Shown in pieces: positions 18,535 to 56,983 of a stretch of 64,000 bases of DNA. The stretch comes from an uncultured delta proteobacterium (GTDB taxonomy: Bacteria; Desulfobacterota; Binatia; Binatales; Binataceae): contig CAVRUK010000006.1 of the NCBI GenBank assembly GCA_963724395.1, forward strand, positions 2,379,125 to 2,443,124. The letters run 5' to 3'. Position 1 is the stretch's first letter. The number at the start of each line of letters is the position of its first letter. A model generated the notes under the pieces. That model was not told where the DNA came from, made no database searches, and saw nothing but the letters and a program-made list of their open reading frames with translations. The translations under genes and the position numbers were made by a program.

Positions 18535-19731
18535 TCAGTTGATGGCGGCCTCTGAGCGATCGCTCAAGATACCCACCGCGTCATCCTGAAGACTGACGCG
18601 ATGATCTCTCGCCAACACGGTCGTGTAGAGATTCAGCGTCCGAGCACCCATTTTACGGATTCCGAATTCGTTGACGACCCTATCGCGCGCGGCACGTCCC
18701 ATCCTCATCCGCAGCTCGGAGTCGAGTAACAGCCGGTTGAGCGCGTCCGCCATCGCATCGGAACTCCTGGGCTCGACCGTAAAGCCGGTAACGCCGTCCA
18801 GCGACGCGTAAGGAACGCCGGAATCGATCCGGGTGTTTACCACCGGCCTGCCACACGCCATCGCCTCCAATTGAACCAATCCAAAGGCCTCGCTGCGCTC
18901 ACACGACGGCAGCGCGAAAATATCGCAGGCGTGATAGTAGCTGGCGAGCTCGTCGTGGACCTCGCCGAGAAAAATTACCCGCTCGGAGGTCCCGTTGCTT
19001 GCGGCTTCGCGCTCGAGTTCGGCGCGCAGCGGGCCTTCGCCAATAATCACCAGCTTGGCGTCGACCTTGGACATCGCCTGGATGAGAAACTTCATTCCCT
19101 TGTAATAAACCAGCCGCCCAACCGCCAGAATCACCCTCGGCCCGAAACGCTGGCGCAGCCTGTCGGTGAGCGACCGGTCAACGCGGTCGTTATCGAATTG
19201 CCGCGCGTCGATTCCATAGGGAATCAAATGGCAGCGGCCGGCGTGCTCGCGGAGCACCGGTGAGCTAGCGATATAAGCGGGCGAGGTGGCGACAATCGCG
19301 GCGCATCGGTTAAGCAGCAGGCGTTCGAACGGCTGATAGAGGCGGGCCAGCCGCCGTTGGCGCACGACGTCGCTGTGCCAGGTCACGACCAGCGCTCCGG
19401 CAGGCCGTCCGATCAGGCAGGCGATTACTGCGGCCGGGTTTGGCAGATGCAGATGCACGATATCCGCGCGTTCGCGCCGGAGACTGTTGATCATAGCCGG
19501 GCATATCGGCGCCGCAGCCAGCGTCATCACCCGTCCGAGCCGGACCAGGTCGATGCCCTCGACGCTGCAACGGTCCTGACGCAAACGATCGTTGGCGACG
19601 ATCACTTTCAGATCGACCGACTTGCGCAACTCTGAACACAGGTCCAGGAGATGCGACTCGATACCGCCATGATGGGGCGCAAAGTACTTGCCGATCTGCA
19701 ATACGCGCAGCCGGCCTCCGTTGGAGGTCAT
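18535..19731 (-). CDS. glycosyltransferase family 4
   Basis: GT-B fold GT4 motifs ('EAFGLVQLEAMACGRPVV'). Confidence 0.85.
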   Translation of the reverse strand: MTSNGGRLRVLQIGKYFAPHHGGIESHLLDLCSELRKSVDLKVIVANDRLRQDRCSVEGIDLVRLGRVMTLAAAPICPAMINSLRRERADIVHLHLPNPAAVIACLIGRPAGALVVTWHSDVVRQRRLARLYQPFERLLLNRCAAIVATSPAYIASSPVLREHAGRCHLIPYGIDARQFDNDRVDRSLTDRLRQRFGPRVILAVGRLVYYKGMKFLIQAMSKVDAKLVIIGEGPLRAELEREAASNGTSERVIFLGEVHDELASYYHACDIFALPSCERSEAFGLVQLEAMACGRPVVNTRIDSGVPYASLDGVTGFTVEPRSSDAMADALNRLLLDSELRMRMGRAARDRVVNEFGIRKMGARTLNLYTTVLARDHRVSLQDDAVGILSDRSEAAIN

Positions 19732-19884
19732 CGACGCAACCCTGGCACTTGGACGCCCGCGCTTTGAACTGATTTGTACAAACTCGGAACAGCACGATAC
19801 CTTCGGTTCGTCCGCAGCTAATCACGCCACTCCCGTTAAGCATGACCCGCCGGACGAACCGGGAAATCGAAACCAGGAGTCGAT

Positions 19885-20391
19885 CTAATGGGACGGCGTA
19901 CTCGGTCCCGAGCTGCCACCGCCACCGCTGAAACAGCCCGCGGCCGCGCAAGCTCCCAGTCCTGCCCCCGTCGCGACGAACAGTGCGGCGGCACCGATGA
20001 CCGCGCCGCCTCCAAGCCACGCCGCGCCGCAAGCACCCGGCGGATTTTGAGACGAAGACGCGACTACAGTGGGTGATAGTGACCAGTCTTCTGTCAGACC
20101 TTCCGCCGGGATCGAGCTGTTGGTCGCCCCTGGCTGGAAACCTCCGGGCGGATTCACCGAGGTCTTGTAAGTGCCTGGGTCGATTCCTGTGATGCAATAT
20201 CTACCGGCATCGTTGGTCGTCCCTTGCCCAACTACCTTTCCGCTCGCGTCTGTGACGGTAACTTGTGCTCCGCCTACTGGACCGCCGGGTCCGCCCACTT
20301 GACCGGTGAGGTCAGAACAGAAAGCAACCGGCGTAAAAGAAAGGCACAGAGAAACCAGCGAACAAACCGCCACATATGATCTATTTTTCAA
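19885..20391 (-). CDS. secreted carboxypeptidase-regulatory-domain-like protein with Gly/Ala-rich C-terminal module
   Basis: Signal peptide; 'VTVTDASGKVVGQGTTNDAGRYCITGIDPGTY' CarboxypepD_reg-like; C-terminus 'CGAAWLGGGAVIGAAALFVATGAGLGACAAAGCFSGGGGSSGPSTPSH', similar to the tail of 17578..18348. Confidence 0.55.
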   Translation of the reverse strand: MKNRSYVAVCSLVSLCLSFTPVAFCSDLTGQVGGPGGPVGGAQVTVTDASGKVVGQGTTNDAGRYCITGIDPGTYKTSVNPPGGFQPGATNSSIPAEGLTEDWSLSPTVVASSSQNPPGACGAAWLGGGAVIGAAALFVATGAGLGACAAAGCFSGGGGSSGPSTPSH

Positions 20392-20691
20392 GTCGGGGAC
20401 CCTCCCGTGAACTGCTACTTCCGTTTTAACTGTCGAATTCCAACTGCCCTACAAATCGAACCGACTTCCCCGCTTGCGTCGAACCCTTCAGGTTTACGGT
20501 GTTTCCGGCGGCACCGGAAACATATACCGGTGTCGCAACTGTTTCTCCCTGCGTCGCCAACGTCTTCATTTAATGATTCAGAATTGGTACTCGCCGCTTA
20601 TCGCCAGTGGCGGCCCGGACTTCGTTTGTTGTCAGTATGCTACCAGAAAACGTCTCATAAGGTAACAATTCACCACGTTAGCTGTCAAGCC

Positions 20692-20721
20692 GCGTCAGTT
20701 TCGGCTGATGCCGCTTTTTTT
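20692..20721 (+). terminator. candidate intrinsic terminator on + strand with no annotated upstream + gene
   Basis: 'gcgtcag-tttcgg-ctgatgc' 7 bp stem (one G.U) followed by cgcTTTTTTT. Confidence 0.4.
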
Positions 20722-20755: not shown

Positions 20756-22009
20756 TCAGGCGGCGAGGCGTCGGCGATCCGCAAGCTCCCGATAATAGGC
20801 GCTATATTGCCGCGCGACTGTGGCAACCGAATAGGCTTGCACGCGCTCGAATCCACGCCGCGCCATCTCGGCGCGCAACTCCGCGCTGCCAATCGCTTCG
20901 CGTATCGCTTCGGCCCAAATCCGGGCGTCATTCTCGGGCAGGACCTTGCCGGCATCTCCGATGACGTAGGGTATTTCTCCAGAGTCGCTGCCAAGCACCG
21001 GTACGCCGCACGCAAAAGCCTCTATCGTCATGCGTCCGAACTGTTCTCGCCATCGCTGCCCAGTCTGACTGGGGGCGAGAAGAAGATCGGCGGCGCCGAG
21101 ATAGGCCGGTACGTCGCGATGCGGCACCAGGCGGATCTGCACACGATTGCTCCAATCGCGAGCTGCGGCCCAATTGCGAAGATTGGCTTCCATCGGACCA
21201 GCACCCAATACCAGCAAGCTCCATGGAGTTGAGCTGCCGACTAACTCCATCGCGCCCATTATTAGATCGATTCCCTTCTCATGGGTCAGTCTGCCGACAT
21301 AGGCGACAATTGGGGGAAGCAAACCGAGATCGCGCGCGACCGCCTGCTTGCGATCCGGCGTGAAGGGCCTGAAGGCGTCGAGATCTACGGCGAAGGCTAT
21401 GATTTGGCCCCGCTCTTTCGGATAACCACGCTTGGTCATCGTTTCGAATACCAGATTGCCGCCGGTAATCCACCCTTGTGCGCGTTCGCGAACGGAGCGT
21501 TCGAAGTAAGAAAACGGATACGGGTACCGCTTCTCTATATTTTGATTGGTGCGAAAGCAGAACGTTGCGTTCGACTTCTCTATCGCCCTCGCGATTTGAT
21601 AGCCCGCGTAGGTGTACGGCTCCTCCCAGCCGTCAACGACGTCAAAGGCGCCGTTTTCGATTAGCGCCGCAAGACCGCGGCGATCATAGGCGAATATTTG
21701 CGGCCAATTCGTAAACCGCGCCGCGAGAGCTCGCAGCTCGAGGTTGGATTCCGGCGGTTCCGGTTGCAATTCGATCAGGCCGAGTCCGCTGCGGAAGGCG
21801 ATTGGCGCGGCCACGGTCACATCAAGCTGAGGGTCGCGCGCGACCTCTCGACTCACCGCACGGTTTTCCGCGACCACGCAGGAGTGGCCAATCGTGAGGA
21901 CGCGAATGCGATGATTCAACGGTTTTCCACCATTGGCGTCGAAAGGGCCGCGAGGCATTCGTTCAAATCCGCGCGTTCCGCGGGTGTCGCGATCACATAG
22001 GAGTCCCAA
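20756..22009 (-). CDS. glycosyltransferase family 4
   Basis: GT4 C-terminal motifs ('EAFACGVPVLGSDSGEIPYVI'). N-terminus may start later, near MPRGPF. Confidence 0.8.
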   Translation of the reverse strand: MGLLCDRDTRGTRGFERMPRGPFDANGGKPLNHRIRVLTIGHSCVVAENRAVSREVARDPQLDVTVAAPIAFRSGLGLIELQPEPPESNLELRALAARFTNWPQIFAYDRRGLAALIENGAFDVVDGWEEPYTYAGYQIARAIEKSNATFCFRTNQNIEKRYPYPFSYFERSVRERAQGWITGGNLVFETMTKRGYPKERGQIIAFAVDLDAFRPFTPDRKQAVARDLGLLPPIVAYVGRLTHEKGIDLIMGAMELVGSSTPWSLLVLGAGPMEANLRNWAAARDWSNRVQIRLVPHRDVPAYLGAADLLLAPSQTGQRWREQFGRMTIEAFACGVPVLGSDSGEIPYVIGDAGKVLPENDARIWAEAIREAIGSAELRAEMARRGFERVQAYSVATVARQYSAYYRELADRRRLAA

Positions 22010-22797
22010 GGCACTTCGAAAATCGTTCCGCCACTGCCCAGTACGTTTGCGCGATAACCAATCGCTTCGAGCGCCGATGCGATTTCCACGTTGGTGCCGT
22101 GCAGCTCGATAAACAGCAGTGGCCTGTGGCGCATCAGGGTTTCATGCCCTCCAGCCAGCACGTCGGCCTCCGCGCCTTCGACATCTATTTTCATCACGTC
22201 GGGAGCAGGCAGGTGCGCTTCACTCATGAGCGTGTCCAGGCGCCGAATCTGTACCGTCTCGGTGCCGGCAGGTTTGGTGGGAACCCGGCCGACCGTCGCA
22301 AGCATGCCGTGGGTTGAGATTTCGGACCGCAGAAAACTGGCTTCGCCGTCGTGATTGCCGAGCGCGACCCGGATCACGCGAATCGAATCGAAATGGTTCA
22401 GCCTGGCGTTGACTTCGATTTGATCGGCGTTTCCAGCCATTGGCTCAAAACTGATCACATGACCTCGCGACGGATCGATCAACCGGCATGCCACCGTGGA
22501 GTGGAAACCGACATTGGCGCCCACGTCGAAGAAGGTCATGCCGGGCTTGAGCAACGCGAGCATCGCGCGCTGCACTCCCGGTTCGGACGTGCCCAGCAGA
22601 TAGCCCGCGTTGGAGCGGCCGGGATTGAAGAGCAGTCCCTTGCCGACTCCCTTGCGAATTTTTCCCTCCTGCCCCTGGATGCGTTTGGTGGACCATTCAA
22701 ACACCCGTCGAACCGCCGGATGCTTCCACGAAGCGTTCGACACCGCCCCGATCCATGAGCGCGGCAACATTCCGACCATCGAAGTGAAAACGCTCAT
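21916..22797 (-). CDS. FkbM-family SAM-dependent methyltransferase
   Basis: 'FFDVGANVGFHS...IRVALGNHDGEASF...MKIDVEGAE' FkbM signature. Confidence 0.8.
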   Translation of the reverse strand: MSVFTSMVGMLPRSWIGAVSNASWKHPAVRRVFEWSTKRIQGQEGKIRKGVGKGLLFNPGRSNAGYLLGTSEPGVQRAMLALLKPGMTFFDVGANVGFHSTVACRLIDPSRGHVISFEPMAGNADQIEVNARLNHFDSIRVIRVALGNHDGEASFLRSEISTHGMLATVGRVPTKPAGTETVQIRRLDTLMSEAHLPAPDVMKIDVEGAEADVLAGGHETLMRHRPLLFIELHGTNVEIASALEAIGYRANVLGSGGTIFEVPWDSYVIATPAERADLNECLAALSTPMVENR

Positions 22798-22809: not shown

Positions 22810-23949
22810 TCAACTGCGCGACGATGTGTCGTCCAGCACGCACTTGATTCTGGAACAGATGAACTCGACGTCCTGACGGGTGAGTTTCACGCCACACGGC
22901 AGACTGAGGCCGCGGCGCGACAGGTCTTCGGCGACTGGGAACCGGCCGCCTGAATCGTACTTCCGCGTCGGCGGCAGCGTATGCAACGGTTTGAAGAATG
23001 GACGAGAATCAATTCCGCTCGCGCGTAGCTCGGCCATCACTGTATCCGCCTCGAGACGATTGGGAAGAACCGCGCAAACCATCCAGAAGGAACTTTCGGC
23101 CCACGACATCGAAGGGTTGAGTTTCAAATCCTCACGATCGCCCAGAAATTCCCGATACCACTGCATGATCTGCCGCTTGCGCGCGATCAACTCAGGCGCG
23201 CGCCTGAGCTGCGCGAGTCCCAGCGCGGCTTGCAGATTTGTGATGCGGTAATTGTAGCCGATCTCGGAATGGTAGTAGCGCGTCTCGGGACGCATCGCGT
23301 GATCGTGCAGAAAGTTAGCGCGCGCGGCCAGCGCGGAATCGTTCGTCACCAGCATCCCGCCTTCGCCGCTCGTGATCAGCTTGTTGCCGTAGAAGGAAAA
23401 AATGCCGGCGTTACCCAGACCGCCGGTTATGCGACCCTTGTACAGCGCGCCGTGGGATTCGGCAGCGTCTTCGATCACAGTCAGCTTGTGACGCGCAGCC
23501 GAATCCAGGATCGGATCCATGTCGGCCGGATGACCATAGAGATGAACCGGAATGATCGCGCGCGTGCGCGGCGTGATGGCCCGCTCGACGGCGGCCGGAT
23601 CGAGGCACCAGGTATCCGGCTCCGAGTCCACGAACACGGGCACGGCGCCGGCATAGATGACCGCGCTCGCAGTCGCGATAAAGGTCAGGGTCGGCACGAT
23701 AACTTCGTCACCCGGCCCGATTCCAAGCGCGGCGATAGTGAGATGCAGCGCGACAGTACCGTTGGCGGTGCTGACGCCATGACGCGTATGGCAGAAATCG
23801 GCGAACCCCCGCTCGAACTCCTCGACGTAGCGTCCCAGGGAGGAAACCCATCCCGAGCGCACCGCGTCGGTCACATACTCGATCTCGAGTTCACCGATGT
23901 CCGGTTCGGCGATTGGATAAAATTTTCGCGCGTCCGTTTTCTCAGCCAA
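22810..23949 (-). CDS. DegT/DnrJ/EryC1/StrS-family PLP-dependent sugar aminotransferase
   Basis: Characteristic motifs ('GDEVIVPTLTFIATA', 'DAAESHGA', 'SFYGNKLITSGEGG'). Confidence 0.9.
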   Translation of the reverse strand: MAEKTDARKFYPIAEPDIGELEIEYVTDAVRSGWVSSLGRYVEEFERGFADFCHTRHGVSTANGTVALHLTIAALGIGPGDEVIVPTLTFIATASAVIYAGAVPVFVDSEPDTWCLDPAAVERAITPRTRAIIPVHLYGHPADMDPILDSAARHKLTVIEDAAESHGALYKGRITGGLGNAGIFSFYGNKLITSGEGGMLVTNDSALAARANFLHDHAMRPETRYYHSEIGYNYRITNLQAALGLAQLRRAPELIARKRQIMQWYREFLGDREDLKLNPSMSWAESSFWMVCAVLPNRLEADTVMAELRASGIDSRPFFKPLHTLPPTRKYDSGGRFPVAEDLSRRGLSLPCGVKLTRQDVEFICSRIKCVLDDTSSRS

Positions 23950-25112
23950 TCTTTTCGACCCCTGTCTGCTGACCTCGTTTCATCAAGTCGTCCAGCAGGC
24001 GCCCGGTCTTGTTGCGAAAGCCCTCATAACTGAATTCCGCCTCGATTCGGGCGTGCGCCGCAAGACCCATCCGTCGCCGATTTTCGTCATCGAGCAGGAT
24101 TGTCGCGATGGCATCGCGCATCGCGCCCTGATCGCGGGGCGAAATGATTCGGCCGTTTTCGCCGTCGATTACCGCTTCCTGCGAACCGTCTTCATTGCCG
24201 ACCACAATCGGTTTGCCGCAAGCCGCCGCCTCGAGCGGTGTCAGCGGCACGCCTTCGCCCTTGCCGTGCCCGCGTTCGCTCACGAGCGAAAACATGTCGC
24301 CGAGATTATACACGTCGGGAAGCGTTGCCTCCTGCACGGAGCCGATGAAAAAGGCCTTGCGCTCAAGCCCCATTTCCCGCGCGCGGCGCTGGAGCCTTTC
24401 GCGATCGCCGCCGTCGCCGGCGAAGATGCCGATCACGTTTGGATTTTCCTTGAACGTCGCGAGCGCATCGAGCAACCGGTCATATCCTTTGTATCTCGTC
24501 GCCTCTTCCATCCTCCCGAGCGTCAGCACATAGCGGAAGTCAGGACCGCGCGGGATTCCGAAGTGCTCCAGCAGGTCGGTGCGCCGCGGCTGCGGATGGA
24601 AGCGCGACAAATCGACGCAATCCCAAATCACCCGTACGCGCTCCGGTTTGATTCCGTAATCATCCACGACAAAGTCGCGCGAGAAGTGACAGTCCGAAAC
24701 CACCGCATCGGCTCCCGATAGCAACCGTCGATAAGCCCATTGCCATCGGCTCCACAATTCCCGCCCGTAGACATTGGCCACCAATCGCCCGCCAATCGCA
24801 GCCATTCGGGCAGCCCACGCCGCCGGCAGCAGACGCACATGACTCGACCATACGATCGCGGGACGCGTCGCGAAGGCACGATTCGCACCTTGAGCAAGAT
24901 ATGAGCCCTCGCTGCTCAAGCCGATCCCACGTCCATGGTAGTCGACTTGAAACGGCTCCTCGAAGTCGTTCGGTCGTGGCGGAATCAGGGACATGACATT
25001 GACGTTTTCGGCGCCAGCGAGTTCGCGCAGCGCGCGAATCTGGTAGCGGCAGTATCGCGAGATTCCGCCTTTGTCGAAAACTCCGATCCCGAGAAATAGA
25101 ATCCTCAAATAT
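23942..25112 (-). CDS. glycosyltransferase family 4
   Basis: GT4 motifs ('TPLEAAACGKPIVV'). Probable TTG start overlapping the stop of the upstream FkbM gene (ATATTTGA); the ORF-track N-terminal extension to 25357 is unlikely. Confidence 0.75.
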
Positions 25113-25941
25113 TTTTCCCGACGAGCTGTGCTTCCGGCAAAGTCATGATGCAATTCTGCAGCCGGACGGGATCTCGCACCGTGGGCCGCCGCCGGACGTA
25201 ACCCGACGATTCGAGCAGTGTCACCGGATCGCCTCCCGAAACGCCGCGCCATCCCGGGTTGTCTTCGATGATCAAAAAGCGCGGGTACAACTCGTGCGCA
25301 ACATTCGCCAAGTACCGCTTGAGCACCCGGTATTCGGCGCCGCAGATGCCGATCCATGCGCCGTCAACTTTCCGAATCTGCTGATCGTGAACGACCGCTT
25401 CCAAAGGACGGCCATTGATGCTCACGCCGTCGCTCGAATCCGATAACAGCGAGCTGGTCGCCCTGGTGCCTCGTGGAGGAAGTCCTAGATGCATCGCGCC
25501 TTCATGATCCGACACGCCCAGGTTGAGCGCGGTCACGTTGCGGGCGTCGTTGAGTCGCAAGTTGTATTCGAGCCACTCGAAGCTGACAGGATTCGCTTCG
25601 ATCGCTAAGACCGATCCGCGGGCACGCACGATCCTCGACGCGATCAGAGATGAAAACCCGACGTGCGCGCCGATATCCAGGAATACATTGCCTGGGCGAA
25701 GGTTGCGAACCATGAAGCCAACGTCGGCGGAGTCCCAAAGTTGCGGTGCGAACAGCAGGCCCCCCTCCACCCAATCTTCGGGGTCCAGGCACATCTTGAA
25801 ATCGCGAACCCAAACCGTCGCCCTGGAGCGGGCCTTGCGCAAATAAATGCGCTGTGCGAGGCGCGCGAAGCGAATCGTGCCTTTTACCGTAGGCAGCCTT
25901 CGGGTTAACAGCAGCCAGCTGCGCAATTCGCGATCGAGCAT
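25105..25941 (-). CDS. FkbM-family SAM-dependent methyltransferase
   Basis: 'FLDIGAHVGFSS...NLGVSDHEGAMHL' FkbM signature. Start chosen at MLDRELRS to avoid running into the upstream GT4. Confidence 0.7.
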   Translation of the reverse strand: MLDRELRSWLLLTRRLPTVKGTIRFARLAQRIYLRKARSRATVWVRDFKMCLDPEDWVEGGLLFAPQLWDSADVGFMVRNLRPGNVFLDIGAHVGFSSLIASRIVRARGSVLAIEANPVSFEWLEYNLRLNDARNVTALNLGVSDHEGAMHLGLPPRGTRATSSLLSDSSDGVSINGRPLEAVVHDQQIRKVDGAWIGICGAEYRVLKRYLANVAHELYPRFLIIEDNPGWRGVSGGDPVTLLESSGYVRRRPTVRDPVRLQNCIMTLPEAQLVGKNI

Positions 25942-25960: not shown

Positions 25961-27106
25961 CTACTGCGCTCCGTTGACCGATGCGCGCAGAGCCGCAACC
26001 GTGTGCCTGATGTCGAAGCGGCGATCGTAAAGTTCGCGCGCTGCCATTGCCAGCCGCCGCCGTTCATCCCCGTCGTTAGTCAATTGCCGCACCAACCCTG
26101 CCACCGCCGGCAAATCGTTCACCGGCGCAATCGCCACCGCGCGCGACTCCTGCCACAGCGGTTCGGTCAGCGGACCTGAGGTGGTCACCACGGGACATCC
26201 ATGTTCCAGCGTCGCCATGCAACTGCCGCGCCGTGTAGTAACGCCGTCGGGATAGTACTGGATCATCAGGTCGCAGGCGGCGATCGAGCGCGACAAATCC
26301 GCAGGCGCGAGCGCACCGGTAGCGTGCACTCGATTCGCGAACGAACGATGCCGATCGATCATTCGGTCACGAAACTCCACTCCGCCGTTTCCGATCAGGA
26401 GCACGGAGAGAGCCGCGTCCTGCGCCAAACCAGCCGCAAGCAACGCCGTAGTCCCAGCCGCGTAAACCGATCCGTAAGCGCCGAAGTGTCCCGCAATCTT
26501 GCCGCCATTCGGCGCGAAGCGCCGACGTATCGCATTAGCACCAGCTTCGTCTTCGACCAATGGAACATTGCTGAATATTGGAAGCCATTGAATAGTCCGT
26601 CGCATCCCGGTCATCGACCGCAACAACGGTTCCCACGCCGGCGTCGTCACGAAGAGGCGCTGCGCCGAGCGCGCCAGTATCAGCGCCATCGTACGCGTGA
26701 CCACGCCGAGAAAATTGTGCCGCATCGATTGGCTGCGGGCGATCGGGAACGCGACTTCATGGAACATCACACCGAGCCGCTCGCGTTGCCGCGACGCGAG
26801 CCAGACGCACAGCGGCAGGTTCATCGCCTTCCATCCGAAAGCGTGCGGCACATATTGGAGGAGGACTTGGGACTTCGACCTTCGATCGATTCCACGCTCC
26901 ATCGCCGCGATCGATCGCGGGCCGAAATCATCGGGCAAGCGATGGACCCGAATGGGCCCATTCTCTATTGCTGGATTGGAATTCCCCGGCGTCCAGACAT
27001 GAACCTCATCACCACATCGGGACAGGGCTTCGCCGACCAGATGCGTGTAGTCGCCGACGCCGCCGATGTCGGGAGGATACTCACCGGTTATGAGATGCCA
27101 TATCAA
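25961..27106 (-). CDS. glycosyltransferase family 4
   Basis: GT-B fold, 'GEYPPDIGGVGDYT' N-terminus typical of GT4. Confidence 0.8.
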   Translation of the reverse strand: MIWHLITGEYPPDIGGVGDYTHLVGEALSRCGDEVHVWTPGNSNPAIENGPIRVHRLPDDFGPRSIAAMERGIDRRSKSQVLLQYVPHAFGWKAMNLPLCVWLASRQRERLGVMFHEVAFPIARSQSMRHNFLGVVTRTMALILARSAQRLFVTTPAWEPLLRSMTGMRRTIQWLPIFSNVPLVEDEAGANAIRRRFAPNGGKIAGHFGAYGSVYAAGTTALLAAGLAQDAALSVLLIGNGGVEFRDRMIDRHRSFANRVHATGALAPADLSRSIAACDLMIQYYPDGVTTRRGSCMATLEHGCPVVTTSGPLTEPLWQESRAVAIAPVNDLPAVAGLVRQLTNDGDERRRLAMAARELYDRRFDIRHTVAALRASVNGAQ

Positions 27107-27145: not shown

Positions 27146-28405
27146 TCAACATGCCGAGCGTTCCGCAAGAAAACCGTTTGCAGAGTCATGATGCGAGCCA
27201 GCTGCCGCCTCCGAAAGAATCGGAAGCAGGAGGCGCATATGCCGCTCGAGGGTGAATCGACGGGCGACTTCGACCGCGCCTTCGCACAGGCGCGCATGGT
27301 GCATTGGATCGGCGAGGCACTTTACGATGGCGTCGGCAAGACCGGCGGCGGTCGGCGGGTCGCCCGGCGCGAGATGACCGTTGACGGCGTCAAGCAGCCA
27401 CTCGGGGTTGCCGCCGACGGCGAACGCCGCCTGCGGTACCCCATAAAGACCAGCCTCGCGACCTACCAGCGCTGAAGGCTCGGGCCAGAGGCTTGGTACC
27501 ACTAACAGATCGGACGCCCGGTATAGCCGTTCGAGCGCCTCGCCGCTGAGCCAGCCCACAAATTCGAAATGGATGTTTGGGTTTGCCGCATGGATGGAAT
27601 CCGCTTTACGCTGCCATATTGAGCTGTCCGCTCCGTCGCCCGCCAGCGCCAGGTGCAGCGTGCGTCCGAGCATGCGTGCCGCACGCGCCACCGCCTCGAG
27701 TAACCGCATCCCACCCTTGAGCTTCACCATCCTTCCGACGAAGAGCAGCCGGTGCGGTTGCTCGTCAGCAGGTTGAAGATTTGATGCGGCAAGGGGGAAT
27801 TCGTTTCGTCCAACGGGAACCACACGAACCTCTTCGGGCTTGAATGCGTGTCGCAGATACTCGGCACGGATGTATTCGGAAGGCGCCAGGATAGCCGAAT
27901 ACTTCCGAAGGAGCGTCGAGCGCTCCGATTGGGCGCAGTACTGGCGCCACATGGTGAGCGGATTGAGGCCGCCGCATCGATGCGGATAATAGTGAACAAG
28001 ACATCCCGCCCCGAAGCGCCGCGTACATGGACGCACCACCGGAAACTTGAAGCTCTTCGCACCGCTGATGCAGGTGCCGTAGTAGCCGTGCGCGTAGAAT
28101 ACGGCGGGCGCCACTTGCAGCAGGCCACGCATCAGTTCGAGCCCGAGATGCCCGTGGGCGTAAACGACATCCGGCTTCCATGCGCGAAGTTTTTCCAACG
28201 CTCGTTCGATTCCGGATTCCTGAACGCTCCAAGCCGCTACACTCCCGGCCAGTTTGATCGGTGTCGCCCCCTGATGCAGGCCCGATTCAGTCAGGAACGC
28301 CACGTCGCATCGATTTTCCGCCAAGGCGGGAACCAACATTTCGAGATAGGACTCGATCCCACCCACGCGGTCACGATTCTGATTGACGATTACGATGCGC
28401 ATCAT
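27146..28405 (-). CDS. glycosyltransferase family 4
   Basis: GT4 pattern ('RIVIVNQNRDRVGGIESY', 'LLFVGRMVKLKGG'). Confidence 0.8.
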   Translation of the reverse strand: MMRIVIVNQNRDRVGGIESYLEMLVPALAENRCDVAFLTESGLHQGATPIKLAGSVAAWSVQESGIERALEKLRAWKPDVVYAHGHLGLELMRGLLQVAPAVFYAHGYYGTCISGAKSFKFPVVRPCTRRFGAGCLVHYYPHRCGGLNPLTMWRQYCAQSERSTLLRKYSAILAPSEYIRAEYLRHAFKPEEVRVVPVGRNEFPLAASNLQPADEQPHRLLFVGRMVKLKGGMRLLEAVARAARMLGRTLHLALAGDGADSSIWQRKADSIHAANPNIHFEFVGWLSGEALERLYRASDLLVVPSLWPEPSALVGREAGLYGVPQAAFAVGGNPEWLLDAVNGHLAPGDPPTAAGLADAIVKCLADPMHHARLCEGAVEVARRFTLERHMRLLLPILSEAAAGSHHDSANGFLAERSAC

Positions 28406-29609: not shown

Positions 29610-29754
29610 GCGAGCCTCGTTTCTTCGTCTGCGAGCGGCGCTTTGCCGCTGACAGATCGGTTCTGGACGCTCGAATCGGACTGCCGCTGCAGCACAACGG
29701 TCAGGCCGCACCACATCGCAGGGTCGCGTAGCAGGCGCGCGCTGATCCAGATTC

Positions 29755-32558: not shown

Positions 32559-32570
32559 GCTGGCAGACCC

Positions 32571-35134: not shown

Positions 35135-35228
35135 CTCAAGTCACTGATTGTCGTGTACCCTCGCTGAATAGCCATTGCGTATCGGCTGTTAAGGCGCTGA
35201 CAATAAAGCATCCCTGACATCTGACGGT

Positions 35229-36833: not shown

Positions 36834-36900
36834 CTCAAGGCCCTGATCGGCGATGTCATTCACCCGGTGACCGGCCTCGGCTTCGCATTGCTTAGCCTCG

Positions 36901-38927: not shown

Positions 38928-38971
38928 CATGCTTCCGAACGAGACCGGGCCATGACCTGCGTTTCCCGCGT

Positions 38972-46696: not shown

Positions 46697-47992
46697 TTAG
46701 AAAGTCGGCAACGGGATCGCCATCCGGGTCAGCACGTTGTACACGACATACGGTCCAATCTTGGCGTCGGAGTATGGAACGTCGATTACGTCGTTCGCCC
46801 GGACCGGGATGTCAGGCGCCGCGCCCTTGGCAATTTTGTCCAGATCGATGGGTATCGCAACCTTGTTGCCATTGCCGTCGCTGCGCATCAACGTCGCACT
46901 CCCGGGAGCGGCTGCATACATCGCTCCGCCCGCCGAGCCGACCGCGCCCAGCACCGTCAGCCCCGAACCGACCTGGAAGTAGCCCGGCCGGTAGACCCAG
47001 CCGGTTACCATGACATTGCCCCCGCCGGGAACCACGACTATATCGCCAGGTTCCACAGGCATGTTCATGAAGTGCGCGCTCCCGGTCATGGCGGTAGCCT
47101 TCAAGGGAATAACCACTGCGGGTCCGTTGGTTACGCTCTGCTGCAGATCCTGCAGGGTGGGCGCGCCTTTCGGCGGCGGCACGGTTAGAACGTTGGCTGG
47201 AGGGCCGGCATGCGGATCCCCGTTGTCCGCGACGCTGACTGGACGACCGGCTTCCGCCGGCGACGCCATGGATTGCGCGACGCGTTGCAGTTGTATCCCT
47301 CCGCTGGTGTTCTGCGGCATGATGACGACTTCGTCGGCCGCTTCGGGGGTCGTGCCGCCCGCCTGCGTTATCACGTCAAGAATCGATTCGCCCGCTCCGC
47401 TGAGTGTAACCAACCCCGGCGCGCGGACGGCGCCCACCACGGCGACCTGCCGGCTCTTGTATTCCTTGACGAACAGGTCCACCTGCGGGTCGTACATGTA
47501 TTTTTCCAATGCAGTCGTGAGCTTGTCCCGCAGCTCGGATTCCGGAATGCCCGCAGCGTGGATTGAGCCGACCAGCGGCAAATCGATGTTGCCTTCGCTG
47601 CCAACCCTTACCGTGCGCTCCTTGAAATCATCCACTCCCGGCACCGAGATCTGAAGCACGTCGCCGACGCCGATCGGATAGTCGGTCGAGGTGGCTTTCG
47701 ATCGCACCGCCCACAGCGCGGCCAGCCGCTCGAGGTTCTTCGGCGAGTTCGCAACGCTTGGTATGCTTGCCGCCGCTGACGGCGACGAAACTGCCTCCGG
47801 CGATGCTGCCGCCGCCGATGAGGGTGAATCCGCCGCAGATGGCGACGCAGCAGCCGCCGCGGGCGGTGCATCCGCCGCATCTCCCTGAGGTGGCGCATCT
47901 CCGGGAGGTGGCGCGCTCGCGCAACCAATCAGCGCCGCGGCCGCAAATGCGGCAACTATGTACAGAACCCAACGTGTCGCGTGTTTGATCAT
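46697..47992 (-). CDS. wza: polysaccharide export outer-membrane protein (Wza-like OPX)
   Basis: Lipoprotein signal 'AALIGCAS'; Poly_export motif 'YPIGVGDVLQISV...GNIDLPLVGSIHAAG'; SLBB-like repeats. Start moved to MIKHATRW. Confidence 0.8.
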   Translation of the reverse strand: MIKHATRWVLYIVAAFAAAALIGCASAPPPGDAPPQGDAADAPPAAAAASPSAADSPSSAAAASPEAVSSPSAAASIPSVANSPKNLERLAALWAVRSKATSTDYPIGVGDVLQISVPGVDDFKERTVRVGSEGNIDLPLVGSIHAAGIPESELRDKLTTALEKYMYDPQVDLFVKEYKSRQVAVVGAVRAPGLVTLSGAGESILDVITQAGGTTPEAADEVVIMPQNTSGGIQLQRVAQSMASPAEAGRPVSVADNGDPHAGPPANVLTVPPPKGAPTLQDLQQSVTNGPAVVIPLKATAMTGSAHFMNMPVEPGDIVVVPGGGNVMVTGWVYRPGYFQVGSGLTVLGAVGSAGGAMYAAAPGSATLMRSDGNGNKVAIPIDLDKIAKGAAPDIPVRANDVIDVPYSDAKIGPYVVYNVLTRMAIPLPTF

Positions 47993-48438
47993 TTCGATTT
48001 CGAGACCCCTGCATCCGTTGCCGAGGCTCCCGCCTTTGCGATCGCCAGCGGCTGAGCCGTCGGCGACAACCCCCAATTTACGGTCAACCCTTCTGCGGGC
48101 ACATATGACATCACTGGCAGATATGACGTCACTGACTGACCCTTAAGCACCAGCGTGTAAGGACCCGGCTTGAGACCGCGTACTCGGTACGATCCTTCGC
48201 CATCGGTGACGACCGAACCTGCGCTTGCGCCGGATGAATCGAGCACCGAAACTTGAATCCCCACTGCGGGTTGTCCGGTCTCATTTGCGACGTGGCCGAC
48301 GACGTCCGCGCTCCATGCCGCCGCCGTCAGTATTATCGCGAACGCTCCAGTCATGGCCAATGTCGCGAGCGGTTTTCTCCGGGCACGCGTCCGCCCTCCC
48401 ATCGAGCGGGCCTTCCGATAAACGCCGTTAGAACTCAT
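47989..48438 (-). CDS. secreted carboxypeptidase-regulatory-domain-like protein
   Basis: Signal peptide; 'VSVLDSSGASAGSVVTDGEGSYRVRGLKPGPYTL' fold motif. Shares 'PAEGLT..W.LSPT' with 19885..20391. Confidence 0.5.
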   Translation of the reverse strand: MSSNGVYRKARSMGGRTRARRKPLATLAMTGAFAIILTAAAWSADVVGHVANETGQPAVGIQVSVLDSSGASAGSVVTDGEGSYRVRGLKPGPYTLVLKGQSVTSYLPVMSYVPAEGLTVNWGLSPTAQPLAIAKAGASATDAGVSKSK

Positions 48439-52019: not shown

Positions 52020-52486
52020 TCCTGATACCTTGCCGCGGACTCTCGGGCGATTGTCGTGCGTACTCAAACTCAAATCGTGATCGCGAATGACGCGGGCGGT
52101 GATCGAAAACATTCGAACATCACCTACAGTCTGCCATCATAATTCGGAAAGCGTAAGGCGGAAAAGTTCAGGGGGTAGGAAAAGCGAAAATTAAGCGGGA
52201 GACCAGCCGCACGGGCGGACCTTCAGGCAGACCAGGCGCGGCATAGAACGCCGCCGCTATCGGTCTTTCGGAAAGCGTCATGCGGAAAACGTCGAAACCG
52301 CTATCGTAAAATCGCAACCGGTGCCGAGGATAACCGGCGATATTCCCTGCTCACACCGTCCGGCAGCGCGGAAGCCGCGCGGAAGCCGCAAGGAAAAAGC
52401 CTGACCGGACTTTCAATTCCCGGAACGACCAGCCCCCGCCACCCATTTCTCCAAGCGCCGCCGCGATAGTCTCGACCGACTGAGAC

Positions 52487-53254
52487 TCATTCGCCTCGAT
52501 GCATTACGCCGGGAACGGTTTGTAATTGCGTCCAGAAGCCCGGCGGCTGGGAGTTAACGAAGCTTTGCAACGACCCTATGGCGGGTACGATGCCGTCGTG
52601 GAACATCTGCGGATAGCCGAAGTCTTCCGCATAGTTGTAGTAGAACCCTTCAGTCTTCTCGTAGCTCTGAGTTATTTCATGAGTCCACAGGACTTGCCCA
52701 TTTGCGTTGTTGACCAGTTCCAGCTTCAAGCTGAGCGAATCCTGAACCGTACCGATCGGCAGGCCAAGCAAATAGAACAGACCGGCGTAAGGACCGATCA
52801 GATAACTGTAAGTCGTGCCGTCCCAATCGGTGTTGATGATAGTTCCGCGGAGCAGCAGATTCGCATTCGGATCGGCAGGGCGATTGGTCACGTATACTTC
52901 GTGGAACAATCCGGCCTGCTGCAACTCGGCCGCAGTCGCCTCCGCCAGGTCATCGCTCGGACGGAAATTGTAAGCGGCCTCGGTCAGAAAGCCGTTGGCG
53001 TTTTCGGGCCGCTTGTAGCTCGAAGTACAGTAAGGGACGAGCGGAATTATGCAAAGGTAGATGTATCTCGAGTTTTCAGTGCCACGCTGATCTTGAAAAT
53101 GCTCGACGGCGACTACCGCCGGCACCGGCGTTGTCGCTATCCTAGTCGCGCCGGGTTGATACTCCCATCCGGCCTTGGTCGAGCATCCGGACATTAGCAC
53201 TACAAAGGATAACGCGAAAAGAAAACTCGCCTTATAGTTTGCAAAGTTCACCAT
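52487..53254 (-). CDS. lipoprotein, function unknown
   Basis: MVNFANYKASFLFALSFVVLMSGCS lipobox; lower GC than surroundings. Confidence 0.5.
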   Translation of the reverse strand: MVNFANYKASFLFALSFVVLMSGCSTKAGWEYQPGATRIATTPVPAVVAVEHFQDQRGTENSRYIYLCIIPLVPYCTSSYKRPENANGFLTEAAYNFRPSDDLAEATAAELQQAGLFHEVYVTNRPADPNANLLLRGTIINTDWDGTTYSYLIGPYAGLFYLLGLPIGTVQDSLSLKLELVNNANGQVLWTHEITQSYEKTEGFYYNYAEDFGYPQMFHDGIVPAIGSLQSFVNSQPPGFWTQLQTVPGVMHRGE

Positions 53255-54007
53255 CCTCTCCTTTTTCGCTAATCGCCCGCGGGCACTCCTGCGGCTCATC
53301 CGAAGTTCAAGGTACTGAAATATGTATACTCCGAGTTAACGTGGCGGCGCGAGCAGCACCAGCCCCGCGAAACGCCGCCGACACGCCATTCGCAAAAAAT
53401 ATTTTCACGTATGCCATAAAGTGATGACGCCGCTCCTCGCTGCGTTCTCTAGTTTGGCGCGTTCGACAAGTACGGCGCAGCTGGGCGCGGCAAGACAAGG
53501 CAAAGCAAGGGCGGGCGCGGGTCACCTTGTTCGTTAGCGCGCCGTTGGCTTTCGACGCGTTAATTGCGATGCAGCAGGCAACACCCTTACGTCTTTCACT
53601 GCGTTGTAAATCCAATTATGGCTTCGTCCGTTCCAGTACCTTCAGGTACCTCCCCTGATAAACGGCGTGGTCATCACTGACAGCCGGTCCAAGGGATGGA
53701 CAGTCGTCCAAAACGGTCCGCTTTTCGTCCGGATAGAAGTAAAACAAAAATACAACCTGTGCTGAGGATAACTGGTCGTATTCCCTCCTTAGGTCGCCTG
53801 GGACCGTACAAGGACGAACGAGATATGCTGCAGCCGGGGGGTCTATACCGGAAACCACGAGTCCTGCCCCGCCCTGTTCGCCAAGCGCCGCTGTCTTCTT
53901 ACCAGCCGAAATCGCCATTGCCCGCTCCCACTCTGATTTCAACTCGGGGCTGTCCATAACCAGGCAGTCACCGCGTCTCTTCTCGCGTTTTTTGTGAAAG
54001 TGATTTC

Positions 54008-55100
54008 CTATCTCGCTCGGTTGAAAAACGCAGGAATGGCTATCAGACAGAGGCATATCGCCAAAGGTCGCTGCCAGCGGCCTCCAGAGGCGCATGCTAT
54101 GACGCCGATCGGTACTACTATGTACTGATAGCGGCCGTCGAACAGCAGAAAGTTGGCAATTGCCAACAGCCCCATCGTCAATACGAATCTTCCAAGGCCG
54201 GTCTCGTACCCCCTAATCCACTGAACAAAGTTAGCGATCCCCTCGGTTACCAGCCATAGTGCGCCAATCAGCCAAAATGTGACGTATGTACCAACATAAC
54301 AGTGCCAATTGACACCTGGAGGCCGCAGGAATATCGCTTGGTCCAACTGCAAGCCAAGCTGGCCTCTGGCTTGATAGTCCGAGAGTCCGCGCACCGGTAT
54401 GATTGTCCAAAATAGGGATCCGGGGCCAAAGAGGGCTGCCAGCAATAACGCGAGTGCCATCCCGGTGACAAGTAGTACCCTGAGTGCCCCGATGCACCGG
54501 CCCGGTCATTTCGGCCTCTTGCTACGTCGCTCAACAGGAAGAAAAGCAGGACCGCAGCATTAAACGTAGCCGATAGCGGGCTTGCAGAGCGCCAGTGCGA
54601 TCGCCCGATCGAATCTGCCGCGCAGTTGCTCAGCGAACGCGTTGGTCAAGAACGCCGCCTCCAGCGCGTAGGCTAAATTGTCATACCGCGAGATTAGAAG
54701 CGGGAGAGTCAGGAGCACCAAAAGCAGACCGCCGACCTTCAGCTCCAATGCGGCGGCGATTCGTGCAACACCCACGGCGATGAAAACTTCGATCGCCGTA
54801 GCGGCAACCGCGTATGTCAGCGGCGAGTATCCGTACGCTCCGAATAGGATCTTGCCGATGAGCAACGGGAGCAGACCGTACTGGTAACGAAAGTCAAGTT
54901 ATGGACGCAGGCCGTGGCCCAAGAGATCTTGAGCGGCAAGGTACGAGCCTTGATCTCCCGGCGGAGAGACGTATTCCTCAAAACGAAAATAGTCGTGCCA
55001 CTGTAGGAGTAGCGCCACGACTAGCTCAATAGCGAAAGCCCAGCGCAGGCCGCGAGCCAGGTTAGTCCAGTCGGCGTGGCCGTCGATTCCGCCCGCACCT
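54008..55100 (-). pseudogene. remnants of a GT-C (ArnT/PMT-like) membrane glycosyltransferase gene broken by frameshifts/stops
   Basis: Several short minus-strand ORFs in different frames (54008..54460, 54560..54865, plus an upstream fragment) all encode TM-helix-like peptides. Low-GC context. Confidence 0.35.
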
Positions 55101-55150
55101 CGAATTCGGGTTCTGTCCTTGAGCGCAAGTCGGTGCGCAGAATCAACTAC

Positions 55151-56983
55151 TCAGGCAATCGTGAGTTGCCGATCCGCAATCGTGGGCGCGCTGCTCATGT
55201 CGGTCACGCCCAGCCAGAAGCGCCGCAGCGTTATCCGGTGAGCGATCGTGAATGACTCGAGCGCCGCCAGTTGCGCGGCCGACAGCGTCTCCTGCGCGAT
55301 CACTATTTCGTCGAAGGGCGTGCGCGCGATTATCCCGTCGAGGTCGTCGAGCGATCCCAGCACCGGGTAGCCATGGAAGAGCTTGCCATGCTTGAAGCTG
55401 TCGTCGTCCAACACGCCCAGCAGTTCCGCGCTGGCTCCGACCGTCAACTGCAGATGTTGTACGGCTGCCGCTCCGCGCGCGTCGGCGCCCACGATGACCA
55501 TCCGCCGGGCCGAAGACGCCAGGAACCGTCCGATCCGCTGGAAAAGATGGAACGACCAGCGCGTCGCGACCAGGAAATTGAACATCAGCAGCACGAACAT
55601 CACCACCGTCGCGCGCGAGATGGTTATCGGCGCTATCGACGACGCCAGCTCGACCGCCAGTCCCGCGATTATCGCCGCCAGCATGAAGCGCACGGCCTCC
55701 GCCAGTCCCGTGTATCGCCATATCCCGCGATAAACGCCGGCTACCATGAACGCGCCGCAGCCGATCAGCACGATCCACGGCAGTCCCGCCAGCATCTGGT
55801 CCACCTGCGCGTTGGTCAAATCGAAATCGAAGCGCAGCATCGTCGCGCCAAAGTACGCCGCCGCCACCAGCGCGACATCCAGCACCAACTCGACCAGCCG
55901 GCGCTTGTACCCGAAGCTCAGGATGACGCGCGCTATCGCCGGCAGGTCTTCGATTTGACCGGGTGCTTCCGTCTCGAACGATCGATCCATCAGGAACAAC
56001 GCCACCAGCGCGAAGAACAGCGCCATGAACGGAATCAGCAGGACCGCGTCGTAACCCGGCACCAGGCTGAGCGCGATCGCGCATCCGCCCGCCATCGCCT
56101 GCAGGCCTATCAACGTCGCCGCCGCGGTCGCACTCGACATGCCAAGGCGGGTCAGCCGATGATGCGAATGGTCGAGGCCGCGCTTCGATATCGGATTTCC
56201 CGTCGCCAGCCGCGTCACCGTCACGGTCGCCATGTCGAGCAGCGGAACCATCAGCGCCAGCAACGGCATCGCGAGGCGCGCCGGCAGCGAACCCTCGCCC
56301 CAGTGGCTAGCTTGAATCGACAGGACTCCCAGCACCAGTCCGACCGCGAGCGCCCCTTCGTCGCCCATGAAAACCGACGCGGGCGGAAAGTTGAACACCA
56401 TGAATCCCGCCAGCGCTCCTGCTATCGCAAGCGCCGCGACCATCGTCACATAGTGCACATGCAGCCCTGCCACCGTCGCGATACTCAGCGCCGCGACAAT
56501 TCCCACTCCCGCCGCAAGGCCGTCCACCCCGTCGATTAAGTTGAACGCGTTGGTCGCGGTGACCAGCCAGAAAATCGTCAGCGCAAGGTTGGCGGCGCGG
56601 TAGGGGAAGAAGTCGAGATGCGGCCCCCACCACACGAGGACCGAGATTGCGGCCAGCTCCAGCATGAGTTTATGCCGCGGCGGCAGATCGACGATGTCGT
56701 CGAGCAATCCAACCAGGCACATCGCGACCGCGAACGCCGCCAGCCACGGCATAGTGTGGTGCGGAAGTCCCGCCAGAATTCCAACCAATCCGATCGCAAC
56801 GACGAAACCCGCCATCACCGCCAGGCCGCCGAGCAGCGCGGTCGGTTTTTCGTGCGGGCGATCGATCGAAGGCTGTGCGACGATCCCAAAGTGGACTGAC
56901 GCCGCCTTCGCCAACGGCATCGCCGCCAAGGCGACCAGAAACGACGACACTAAAGTGAGCGCGATTTCAAATCCGGTGGTCAT
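55151..56983 (-). CDS. initiating phosphoglycosyltransferase (WecA/MraY family, Glycos_transf_4) with C-terminal CapD/WbaP-N-like nucleotide-binding domain
   Basis: 'NAFNLIDGVDGLAAG' and other MraY/WecA motifs in the N-terminal 330 aa; C-terminal half has extra TM helices and 'MVIVGADARGAAAVQHL'. Confidence 0.8.
   Translation of the reverse strand: MTTGFEIALTLVSSFLVALAAMPLAKAASVHFGIVAQPSIDRPHEKPTALLGGLAVMAGFVVAIGLVGILAGLPHHTMPWLAAFAVAMCLVGLLDDIVDLPPRHKLMLELAAISVLVWWGPHLDFFPYRAANLALTIFWLVTATNAFNLIDGVDGLAAGVGIVAALSIATVAGLHVHYVTMVAALAIAGALAGFMVFNFPPASVFMGDEGALAVGLVLGVLSIQASHWGEGSLPARLAMPLLALMVPLLDMATVTVTRLATGNPISKRGLDHSHHRLTRLGMSSATAAATLIGLQAMAGGCAIALSLVPGYDAVLLIPFMALFFALVALFLMDRSFETEAPGQIEDLPAIARVILSFGYKRRLVELVLDVALVAAAYFGATMLRFDFDLTNAQVDQMLAGLPWIVLIGCGAFMVAGVYRGIWRYTGLAEAVRFMLAAIIAGLAVELASSIAPITISRATVVMFVLLMFNFLVATRWSFHLFQRIGRFLASSARRMVIVGADARGAAAVQHLQLTVGASAELLGVLDDDSFKHGKLFHGYPVLGSLDDLDGIIARTPFDEIVIAQETLSAAQLAALESFTIAHRITLRRFWLGVTDMSSAPTIADRQLTIA

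Follow-up and report, generated by a model that had tools for sequence, protein, structure and literature searches.

Gene content and layout of the locus

A likely polysaccharide biosynthesis and export locus was found at positions 18,535–56,983 of a 64,000-nucleotide stretch of contig CAVRUK010000006.1 (positions 2,379,125 to 2,443,124 of the forward strand), which is referred to here as the window. Listing of open reading frames (ORFs) and Pfam searches placed every credible gene of this region on the minus strand (Table 1). This agrees with the single-strand polysaccharide locus recognised in a preliminary description of the same DNA and reproduces its gene list, to which a second CarboxypepD_reg gene that had been missed (19885–20391) is added. 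The domain calls made there were also recovered, except for Wzx, which is sub-threshold. The long plus-strand ORFs of the region are antisense shadows: they show GC1>GC3, as such ORFs do, and are fully covered by Pfam-supported minus-strand genes. Housekeeping neighbours are MutL, MiaA and AccA on the left, and an HtrA-like protease, a thiamine pyrophosphate (TPP) enzyme and LplA on the right. Based on sequence comparison, the source of the locus is a Candidatus Binatus species (Binatota).

A core block of 24 genes occupies 27.7 kb, from 48438 down to 20756 when starts are adjusted to those of orthologues (for gap and overlap counts, the wza start was re-derived from the translation). The widest gap in the block is 154 nt, at GT4_e, where the start is uncertain; all other gaps are ≤94 nt, and six gene pairs overlap by 2–8 nt. 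Gaps of 596, 374, 316, 364, 153 and 186 nt separate the core block from several short flanking units. Judging from the spacing, the core is probably transcribed as a single operon of ~28 kb, and the flanks as short units. The order at the upstream end is WecA, a low-GC stretch, the beta-helix gene, CarboxypepD_reg and wza, and not one in which the beta-helix gene lies beyond the low-GC stretch, as had been described.

Neither an ABC transporter (Wzm/Wzt) nor a processive synthase was found among the scanned ORFs of the locus and its flanks. The window includes no Wzb phosphatase, and the locus has almost no nucleotide-sugar synthesis genes. Rfam (gathering thresholds) and tRNA scans of the window gave no matches. 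The ~390 nt conserved stretch upstream of CarboxypepD_reg 1 was not read as a sign of a special regulatory RNA, the conservation there being about equal to that of the flanking coding DNA.

Table 1. Features of the polysaccharide locus in window coordinates, with supporting matches and amino-acid identity to related loci.
Feature	Coordinates	Strand	Supporting evidence	Identity in relatives
Priming phosphoglycosyl transferase, WecA/MraY (PNPT) type	55151-56983	-	PF00953 E 2e-33; PF13727 (CoA_binding_3) E 6e-10	83-93%
Pseudogene, paralogue of the GT-C gene at 35229-36863	53616-55040	-	tblastn matches in two frames; in-frame stops	
Predicted lipoprotein, 270 aa	52487-53299	-	lipobox-like 'LMSGC'; GC 0.545	
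Secreted pectate-lyase-type beta-helix protein, 1025 aa	49035-52112	-	PF12708 E 1.6e-10, residues 237-287 only	Same position; 62% in L027, 44% in L028
Small secreted CarboxypepD_reg protein 1	47989-48438	-	PF13620 E 1.9e-12	
Wza-type outer-membrane export (OPX) lipoprotein	46697-47992	-	PF02563 (Poly_export) E 5.5e-19; two SLBB stretches; lipobox 'LIGC'	82-85%
Wzc, PCP-2a co-polymerase and BY tyrosine autokinase	44305-46680	-	Wzz, GNVR and AAA_31; TIGR01007 189 bits (cut-off 108)	86-93%
Wzy_C-TPR fusion, O-antigen polymerase/ligase family with ~350-aa C-terminal TPR	41368-44238	-	PF04932 E 5.4e-19; several TPR families	73-91%; same fusion in L024, L025, L027, L028
GT4_a, framework	40120-41346	-	PF00534 E 2e-30; PF13439	81-83% in L024, L025
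GT4_b, framework	38972-40123	-	PF00534 E 1.8e-33	84% in L025
GT4_c, first gene of window-specific cassette, paralogue of GT4_e	37671-38975	-	PF00534 E 1.2e-32	
FkbM methyltransferase 1, cassette	36901-37647	-	PF05050 E 1e-13; TIGR01444 70.1 bits	
71-nt direct repeat, copy 2 (start of GT-C gene)	36782-36852	.	82% identical	
GT-C-fold membrane glycosyltransferase, 544 aa, cassette	35229-36833 (longest ORF to 36863)	-	fold	
71-nt direct repeat, copy 1 (ribosome-binding region and first ~17 codons of second Wzy gene)	35083-35153	.		
Second Wzy_C/WaaL-fold membrane protein, 475 aa, framework	33707-35134	-	Wzy_C E 3e-4 (weak); fold	79%
GT4_d, diverged framework	32571-33710	-	PF00534 E 4e-25	55-57% in L024, L025
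Candidate Wzx (MOP) flippase, 531 aa, polytopic	30963-32558	-	PF01943 (Polysacc_synt) E 5.6e-5, 23.1 bits (cut-off 28.2), profile positions 8-264 of 274	30-32%, elsewhere in locus
Acyltransferase-3 (AT3) membrane O-acyltransferase, framework	29755-30888	-	PF01757 E 8e-30	81-86% in L024, L025
GT4_e, variable; true start probably well inside longest ORF	28443-29891	-	PF00534 E 4.7e-35	
GT4_f, variable among close relatives	27146-28405	-	PF00534 E 7e-21	
GT4_g, framework, weakest GT call	25961-27106	-	PF13579 34.6 bits (cut-off 29.7); PF13524 25.8 (cut-off 25)	76-83% in L024, L025
FkbM methyltransferase 2, framework	25105-25941	-	PF05050 E 2e-9; TIGR01444 70.9 bits	74-78% in L024, L025
GT4_h, framework	23942-25108	-	PF00534 E 4e-32	88% in L025
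DegT/LegC/PseC-like PLP aminotransferase	22810-23949	-	PF01041 E 1.4e-124; closest models LegC family (370 bits, cut-off 420) and PseC	90% in L025
FkbM methyltransferase 3, RfbT-like	21916-22797	-	PF05050 E 1.7e-21; PF05575 E 6e-8; TIGR01444 110.8 bits	
GT4_i, last gene of packed block, start uncertain	20756-22009	-	PF00534 E 3.8e-27	
Small secreted CarboxypepD_reg protein 2, hydrophobic Gly-rich C-terminal tail	19885-20391	-	PF13620 E 3e-9	
GT4_j, separate short unit, within locus in relatives	18535-19731	-	PF00534 E 2.6e-41	
FecR-domain secreted protein, conserved downstream flank	17578-18348	-	PF04773 E 2e-9	
GT4, GT4-like GT-B glycosyltransferase; PNPT, polyprenyl-phosphate N-acetylhexosamine-1-phosphate transferase; OPX, outer-membrane polysaccharide export; PCP, polysaccharide co-polymerase; BY, bacterial tyrosine; TPR, tetratricopeptide repeat; PLP, pyridoxal phosphate; MOP, multidrug/oligosaccharidyl-lipid/polysaccharide. 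The TIGR01444 cut-off is 37.7 bits.

Priming, polymerisation and export proteins

The translated priming enzyme includes the PNPT motifs LLDDIVD (DDxxD), NAFNLIDGVDGL (NxxNxxDGxDGL), VFMGDEG (VFMGDxG) and HSHH, the last of which we take to resemble the HIHH sugar-recognition motif of WecA. Its C-terminal extension, which has four predicted hydrophobic segments and the CoA_binding_3 domain, resembles the non-catalytic N-terminal half of WbaP/WcaJ-type transferases, and residues 368–574 match positions 2–206 of the 445 in TIGR03025. This architecture is common to the best 120 of 1829 homologues, and the protein is 95% identical to one from a Candidatus Binatus sp.

Matches of Wza to EpsE and PEP-CTERM export models fall below the cut-offs. 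The protein may span the outer membrane by a C-terminal helix or may need a beta-barrel partner, as in the composite translocons described in PMC9601211. Wzc has a Walker A motif and a C-terminal Tyr cluster, GYGHYSHYYNHY, in its translation; an exact look-up of the window protein returned no record.

Two Wzy_C-type proteins are encoded. The first is fused to TPR repeats. By a crude hydropathy count, four hydrophobic segments follow its catalytic periplasmic loop, a weak indication that the TPR domain is periplasmic. The second had been described as 'Wzy-like', and this is borne out by its WaaL/Wzy fold. It has 477 relatives, ~45 of them at 75–81% identity, and PF04932 is present in some of the more distant of these. 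Structural comparison gave a ligase as the best match of the protein, and a 78% identical homologue from Candidatus Binatus is named O-antigen ligase family protein by NCBI. Profile comparison of the two proteins gave a weak match confined to the Wzy_C core (E 0.007). Both Wzy_C-type calls stand; family and fold do not separate polymerase from ligase.

The 531-aa protein described as Wzx has ~10 hydrophobic segments and does match PF01943, but the match is sub-threshold and was not strengthened elsewhere: no NCBIfam match and no PDB match by sequence or profile were obtained, and two ~30% identical relatives gave no match to the PF01943 family.

Glycosyltransferases and modification enzymes

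All ten GT4-like genes score above the gathering threshold of one or more Pfam GT-B domain families, nine of them above that of PF00534, with GT4_g passing PF13579 and PF13524 only; the label GT4-like derives from Pfam GT-B clan families, which do not map uniquely to CAZy GT4. The three FkbM genes all pass both PF05050 and TIGR01444, and the DegT and acyltransferase-3 calls were reproduced. The Pfam and NCBIfam searches support GT4-like and FkbM assignments, as in the preliminary description, and do not place these genes in unrelated families. Pairwise identities among the GT4 genes are 25–35%, indicating distinct enzymes, with the exception of GT4_c and GT4_e (51%), and the FkbM genes are ~27% identical to one another. 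Recent tandem duplication as the origin of the many GT4 and FkbM genes is ruled out by these pairwise identities, the one 51% pair aside.

Framework and cassettes in related loci

Six related loci (L024, L025, L027, L028, L029 and L030) and three more distant Binatia loci (L005, L009 and L021) were compared with the window. Related Binatus contigs carry the locus at the same chromosomal site, with conserved flanks and a framework of genes that are 73–93% identical, between which lie non-homologous cassettes. As judged from the alignments, the framework consists of WecA, Wza, Wzc, both Wzy_C proteins, GT4_a, GT4_b, GT4_g, GT4_h, AT3, FkbM2 and DegT, and the cassettes between them, which comprise GT4_c, FkbM1 and the GT-C gene in the window, other transferases and flippases, and the beta-helix enzyme, are strain-specific. 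L027 and L028 keep the order WecA, beta-helix, wza, wzc, Wzy_C-TPR in one contiguous stretch.

The cassette comprising GT4_c, FkbM1 and the GT-C gene is absent from L024 and L025. At the cassette site, a class-I methyltransferase is present in L025, and L024 has an FkbM gene there together with an epimerase and proteins of unknown function. The cassette genes at the variable positions of these loci, a TPP-dependent enzyme and a class-I methyltransferase in L025 (L025:5244-6905) and an NAD-dependent epimerase/dehydratase with several unknown proteins in L024 (L024:4359-5378), point to different sugar chemistry in those strains. GT4_e and GT4_f have other genes in their place in relatives (GT4_e in L025), and orthologues of GT4_f (48–49%) were found in the distant L005, L009 and L021. 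GT4_i has a 42% identical orthologue in L005. Orthologues of GT4_j adjoin the GT block of L005 and L021 (49–51%) and are also present in L029 and L030 (81–83%); a 63% identical orthologue of the FecR protein lies beside GT4_j in L029, and L030 departs from the window upstream of GT4_j.

The relatives hold at least seven GT4 genes in 21 kb. This count, together with the conserved fusion, indicates that a high GT4 number and Wzy_C-TPR are norms of the lineage. The GT4 genes had been called unusually many, and a pair of Wzy proteins with one TPR-fused had been called atypical; among Candidatus Binatus relatives, the high count is the norm and both Wzy proteins are conserved.

The GT-C gene and the 71-nt repeat

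The 544-aa cassette protein, previously described as GT-C-like, gave no Pfam or NCBIfam match, and the description is borne out at the level of fold, with a protein O-mannosyltransferase as the best structural match. In GT-C enzymes, a catalytic acidic residue lies in the first extracytoplasmic loop, after the first transmembrane helix. D86, which is invariant in a 10-member alignment of the family, comes after that helix and a further two short ones and may be the equivalent residue, in a part of the model (residues 86–89) that is poor. A word-indexed search of 5.8 billion proteins recovered 10 relatives, and a profile search of 1.84 billion cluster representatives recovered 664, of which 340 had E <= 1e-30; the family amounts to ~660 clusters at 50% identity. 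Relatives in GTDB genomes are nearly all from Candidatus Binataceae or older "Deltaproteobacteria" metagenome-assembled genomes (MAGs). The family is lineage-restricted and without a family model, and is the one mildly new element of the locus.

GT-C genes occupy three positions of the locus across strains: upstream of the second Wzy gene in the window, directly downstream of WecA in L027, and between GT4_j and FecR in L029 (L029:1244-2698, minus strand). The last is on the opposite strand to GT4_j and FecR, and its product is 36% identical to the 544-aa protein. In L005, L009 and L021, a GT4-rich neighbourhood is kept around the GT-C homologue. Most of the 22 genomic members of the family sit among housekeeping genes, outside polysaccharide loci. 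In L016, the neighbours identified by Pfam are DAHP synthase, NAPRTase, a LonC-like protease, Usp and enoyl-CoA hydratase, and ORF sizes and order around GT-C in L007, L008, L010, L014, L015, L017, L019 and L020 are as in L016. In those loci the gene adjoins an ORF of ~720–850 aa, which has no Pfam match in L016.

The N-terminal ~30 residues of the window GT-C protein are absent from its own family and match the N-terminus of the second Wzy protein. A 71-nt direct repeat covers the start of both genes (Table 1). The repeat and the unshared N-terminus indicate that the GT-C gene carries a copy of the Wzy start region, marking a cassette junction, and the repeat was probably left by recombination when the cassette was inserted. 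On the evidence of the repeat, the ATG at 36833 is a likelier start of the GT-C gene than the GTG at 36863.

The low-GC stretch

The stretch between WecA and the beta-helix gene had been described as a low-GC insert, and part of it is one: L027, a close relative, does not have a ~1.4 kb segment with the lipoprotein gene (~52176–53612). The remaining and larger part is a resident gene, a paralogue of the GT-C gene, that has decayed. This part is 87.8% identical in nucleotide sequence to an intact 472-aa orthologue, L027:11967-13385, and a wholly foreign insert was rejected on this ground. Two nonsense mutations (GAA>TAA and TCG>TAG), three single-base indels outside long homopolymer runs and two in-frame deletions separate it from the intact gene; 53616–55040 is, on the evidence of these lesions, a genuine pseudogene. 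The 270-aa lipoprotein gave no Pfam, NCBIfam or PHROG match, and its ORF has no match in L028.

Secreted proteins and the downstream flank

In the beta-helix protein, described before as a glycosidase, the match to known families is confined to the ~50–60 residues of an N-terminal pectate-lyase-type motif. The matches to phage tail and tail-spike families fall on these ~60 residues as well, and weak PDB sequence matches were obtained to a GH55 beta-1,3-glucanase and a putative pectin lyase. It is best regarded as a candidate polysaccharide-cleaving or -modifying enzyme, for which 'glycosidase' is a reasonable guess.

The stop codon of CarboxypepD_reg 1 overlaps the wza start codon (ATGA, 47989–47992), a sign that translation of this small secreted protein is coupled to that of the exporter. 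An 84% identical orthologue is present in L027, and no match was found in L028. The two CarboxypepD_reg copies are 35% identical. The second copy and the FecR protein share a C-terminus consisting of a Gly/Ala-rich hydrophobic segment followed by FSGGGG..GP.TP.S, which has no further occurrence in a six-frame translation of the window and could be a signal for anchoring or sorting that is specific to the lineage.

Convergent with the locus, on the plus strand at 15631–17540, lies a gene for a PMT_2-like (GT-C type) membrane protein whose coding sequence is broken up between three frames. One of the frame shifts is in a five-T run (~16677–16681) inside LFSPGRGLLFYSP, and the gene may thus reflect a sequencing error and not be a pseudogene. 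No relatives of this gene were found among the related loci compared.

Proposed pathway and alternatives

The region is very probably the main Wzx/Wzy-dependent, Wza/Wzc-exported polysaccharide locus (capsule, exopolysaccharide (EPS) or O-antigen-like) of a Candidatus Binatus bacterium. A Wzx/Wzy-dependent heteropolysaccharide pathway had been proposed from the outset, and every component of it that was tested was borne out except the flippase. The steps outlined here take each family in the role it has elsewhere, starting from the observed families and folds, gene arrangement and framework/cassette variation. The WecA-type enzyme would prime undecaprenyl phosphate with an N-acetylhexosamine-type sugar-1-phosphate, and the lipid-linked unit would be extended by up to ten cytoplasmic GT4-like GT-B enzymes. 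One of the sugars would be an amino sugar formed via the LegC/PseC-like aminotransferase, and the unit would be O-methylated by FkbM enzymes. The 531-aa membrane protein would then flip the unit for polymerisation by a Wzy_C-fold protein. In the periplasm, acyltransferase-3 would O-acylate the chain, and the GT-C enzyme would add a side sugar in the manner of Gtr/GT136 systems, using a polyprenyl-phosphate-sugar donor made elsewhere in the genome. Chain length and export would be under Wzc and Wza, and the secreted beta-helix protein may trim or modify the polymer; an enzyme adapted to the structure of the polymer would be expected to diverge between strains, as this one does. Given a fixed framework and swapped cassettes, strains should make different decorated variants on a shared backbone. 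A single very large repeat unit is plausible, though not demonstrable from sequence.

Several observations weigh against this interpretation. The flippase assignment, as read from the profile match, is sub-threshold. No dehydratase or N-acetyltransferase accompanies DegT in the window, and the window has neither a polyprenyl-phosphate-sugar synthase (GtrB-like GT2) nor a GtrA-like flippase that could serve the GT-C enzyme. The housekeeping setting of most GT-C family members means that the acceptor need not be this polymer. Operon structure is read from spacing only, because promoter and terminator scans of the window gave counts no higher than those for shuffled sequence. Finally, with its two Wzy_C proteins and twelve transferases, the locus could also make two products.

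In this last case, one Wzy_C protein would be the polymerase and the other a WaaL-/PglL-like ligase that attaches the polymer to lipid core or proteins, or the twelve transferases may be split between two repeat units. The Wzy_C family and the WaaL fold are common to polymerases and ligases, and the best structural match of the second protein is a ligase, as is its 78% identical homologue by NCBI name. Both Wzy_C proteins are also conserved to a degree unusual for serotype-specific polymerases, in a locus where the flippase and several transferases vary. To our knowledge, ten GT4 enzymes, one GT-C and one primer exceed the needs of known repeat units. However, there is only one primer, one candidate flippase and one Wza/Wzc pair, and both Wzy_C genes are within one tightly packed block. 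As polymerase and ligase are inseparable by fold or family, nothing speaks positively for the split, and two products, or a polymer attached to an acceptor, are possible but doubtful.

It is unlikely that the 38 kb are not one unit, with WecA and the pseudogene, the lipoprotein, the beta-helix protein, CarboxypepD_reg 2, GT4_j and FecR serving other envelope functions beside a core EPS operon of ~28 kb. In its favour, it is common for a WecA-type enzyme to prime several glycans, the flanking units are set off by the six gaps given above, the lipoprotein segment is an insertion and the region upstream of GT4_j is variable. Against this, the core block is without a priming transferase of its own, the genes from WecA to Wzy_C-TPR are contiguous in L027 and L028, and GT4_j adjoins the GT block in L005 and L021.

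That the GT-C gene is a passenger, whose product glycosylates another periplasmic acceptor (a protein, a lipid or a peptidoglycan-linked glycan), is similarly improbable: the housekeeping surroundings of most family members (DAHP synthase, NAPRTase, Lon-like protease, Usp), the protein O-mannosyltransferase match and the absence of donor-synthesis genes nearby would fit, but the family recurs at three positions of the same locus and in the GT4-rich L005, L009 and L021, and the window gene shares its cassette with GT4 and FkbM genes and has its start fused to the Wzy translation-start region.

With the GT-C enzyme taken as part of the Wzx/Wzy-dependent pathway, we tentatively suggest, as a proposal that may well prove wrong, a Binatia-specific set of periplasmic GT-C enzymes for post-polymerisation side-chain addition. 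These would move as cassettes between at least three positions and be gained, lost or decayed, giving serotype-like variation on a backbone fixed by the two Wzy_C proteins. Wzy_C-TPR would be a polymerase with a periplasmic scaffold linking polymerisation to Wzc/Wza export.

Binatota are abundant uncultured bacteria of soil and peat, and no description of their surface polysaccharides was found in the literature searched. The presence of a large strain-variable polysaccharide locus in Candidatus Binatus bears on soil aggregation, on interactions with phages and predators, and on MAG typing. The yield is modest: a framework-and-cassette map, a GT-C family deserving a model, and a conserved WecA plus WbaP-like-domain architecture. 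Slightly beyond routine are the cassette-moving GT-C family with one decayed copy, the conserved Wzy_C pair beside a variable flippase, and the WecA plus WbaP-like primer. The kind of pathway is already known, and understanding of how Wzx/Wzy pathways work is unchanged by a locus that is ordinary in kind, in a phylum whose glycans are undescribed in that literature.

Comparison with known systems

The best NCBIfam matches of several proteins recall the XrtA/PEP-CTERM EPS systems (EpsB-EpsL type), and include the export protein, chain-length determinant, tyrosine kinase, stp2-type GT4, TPR protein PrsT and O-ligase-like models. An XrtA/PEP-CTERM exosortase system was rejected, as all TIGR030xx matches are far below their cut-offs and no exosortase or PEP-CTERM protein is present among the scanned window ORFs.

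The arrangement resembles that of group 1 capsule and colanic acid-type loci (E. coli cps/wca and the EPS, BPS and spore-coat loci of Myxococcus xanthus), which likewise have a primer, several GT-B transferases, a Wzy_C polymerase, Wzc and Wza on one strand, and a secreted or periplasmic glycan-processing enzyme adjoining the export genes. Model Wzx/Wzy loci have about five to eight transferases, and the locus studied here differs in having twelve. It also differs in its two Wzy_C-fold proteins, one of them TPR-fused, in a WecA-type primer that carries a WbaP-like accessory domain, in being without Wzb and almost without nucleotide-sugar synthesis genes, and in the small CarboxypepD_reg protein whose translation is probably coupled to that of wza.

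The GT-C gene resembles those of the GtrA/GtrB/Gtr systems of Shigella and Salmonella and of the GT136 systems in encoding a polytopic GT-C enzyme with a soluble C-terminal domain at a surface-polysaccharide locus and in being strain-variable, as would be expected for an element that adds side chains after polymerisation. The GT136 pentofuranose systems are three-component systems for extracytoplasmic glycosylation (PMC11127046). Here, in contrast to Gtr and GT136 systems, the polyprenyl-phosphate-sugar synthase and donor flippase would lie outside the window, and the GT-C enzyme is without a Pfam or NCBIfam model.

As in enterobacterial O- and K-antigen loci, a fixed site with conserved flanks and framework holds strain-specific cassettes of transferase, flippase and modification genes, with a recombination footprint at a junction. 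In enterobacterial loci, wzx and wzy are both usually serotype-variable. In the Candidatus Binatus locus, both Wzy_C genes belong to the conserved framework (73–91%), whereas the candidate flippase varies (30–32%) and moves.

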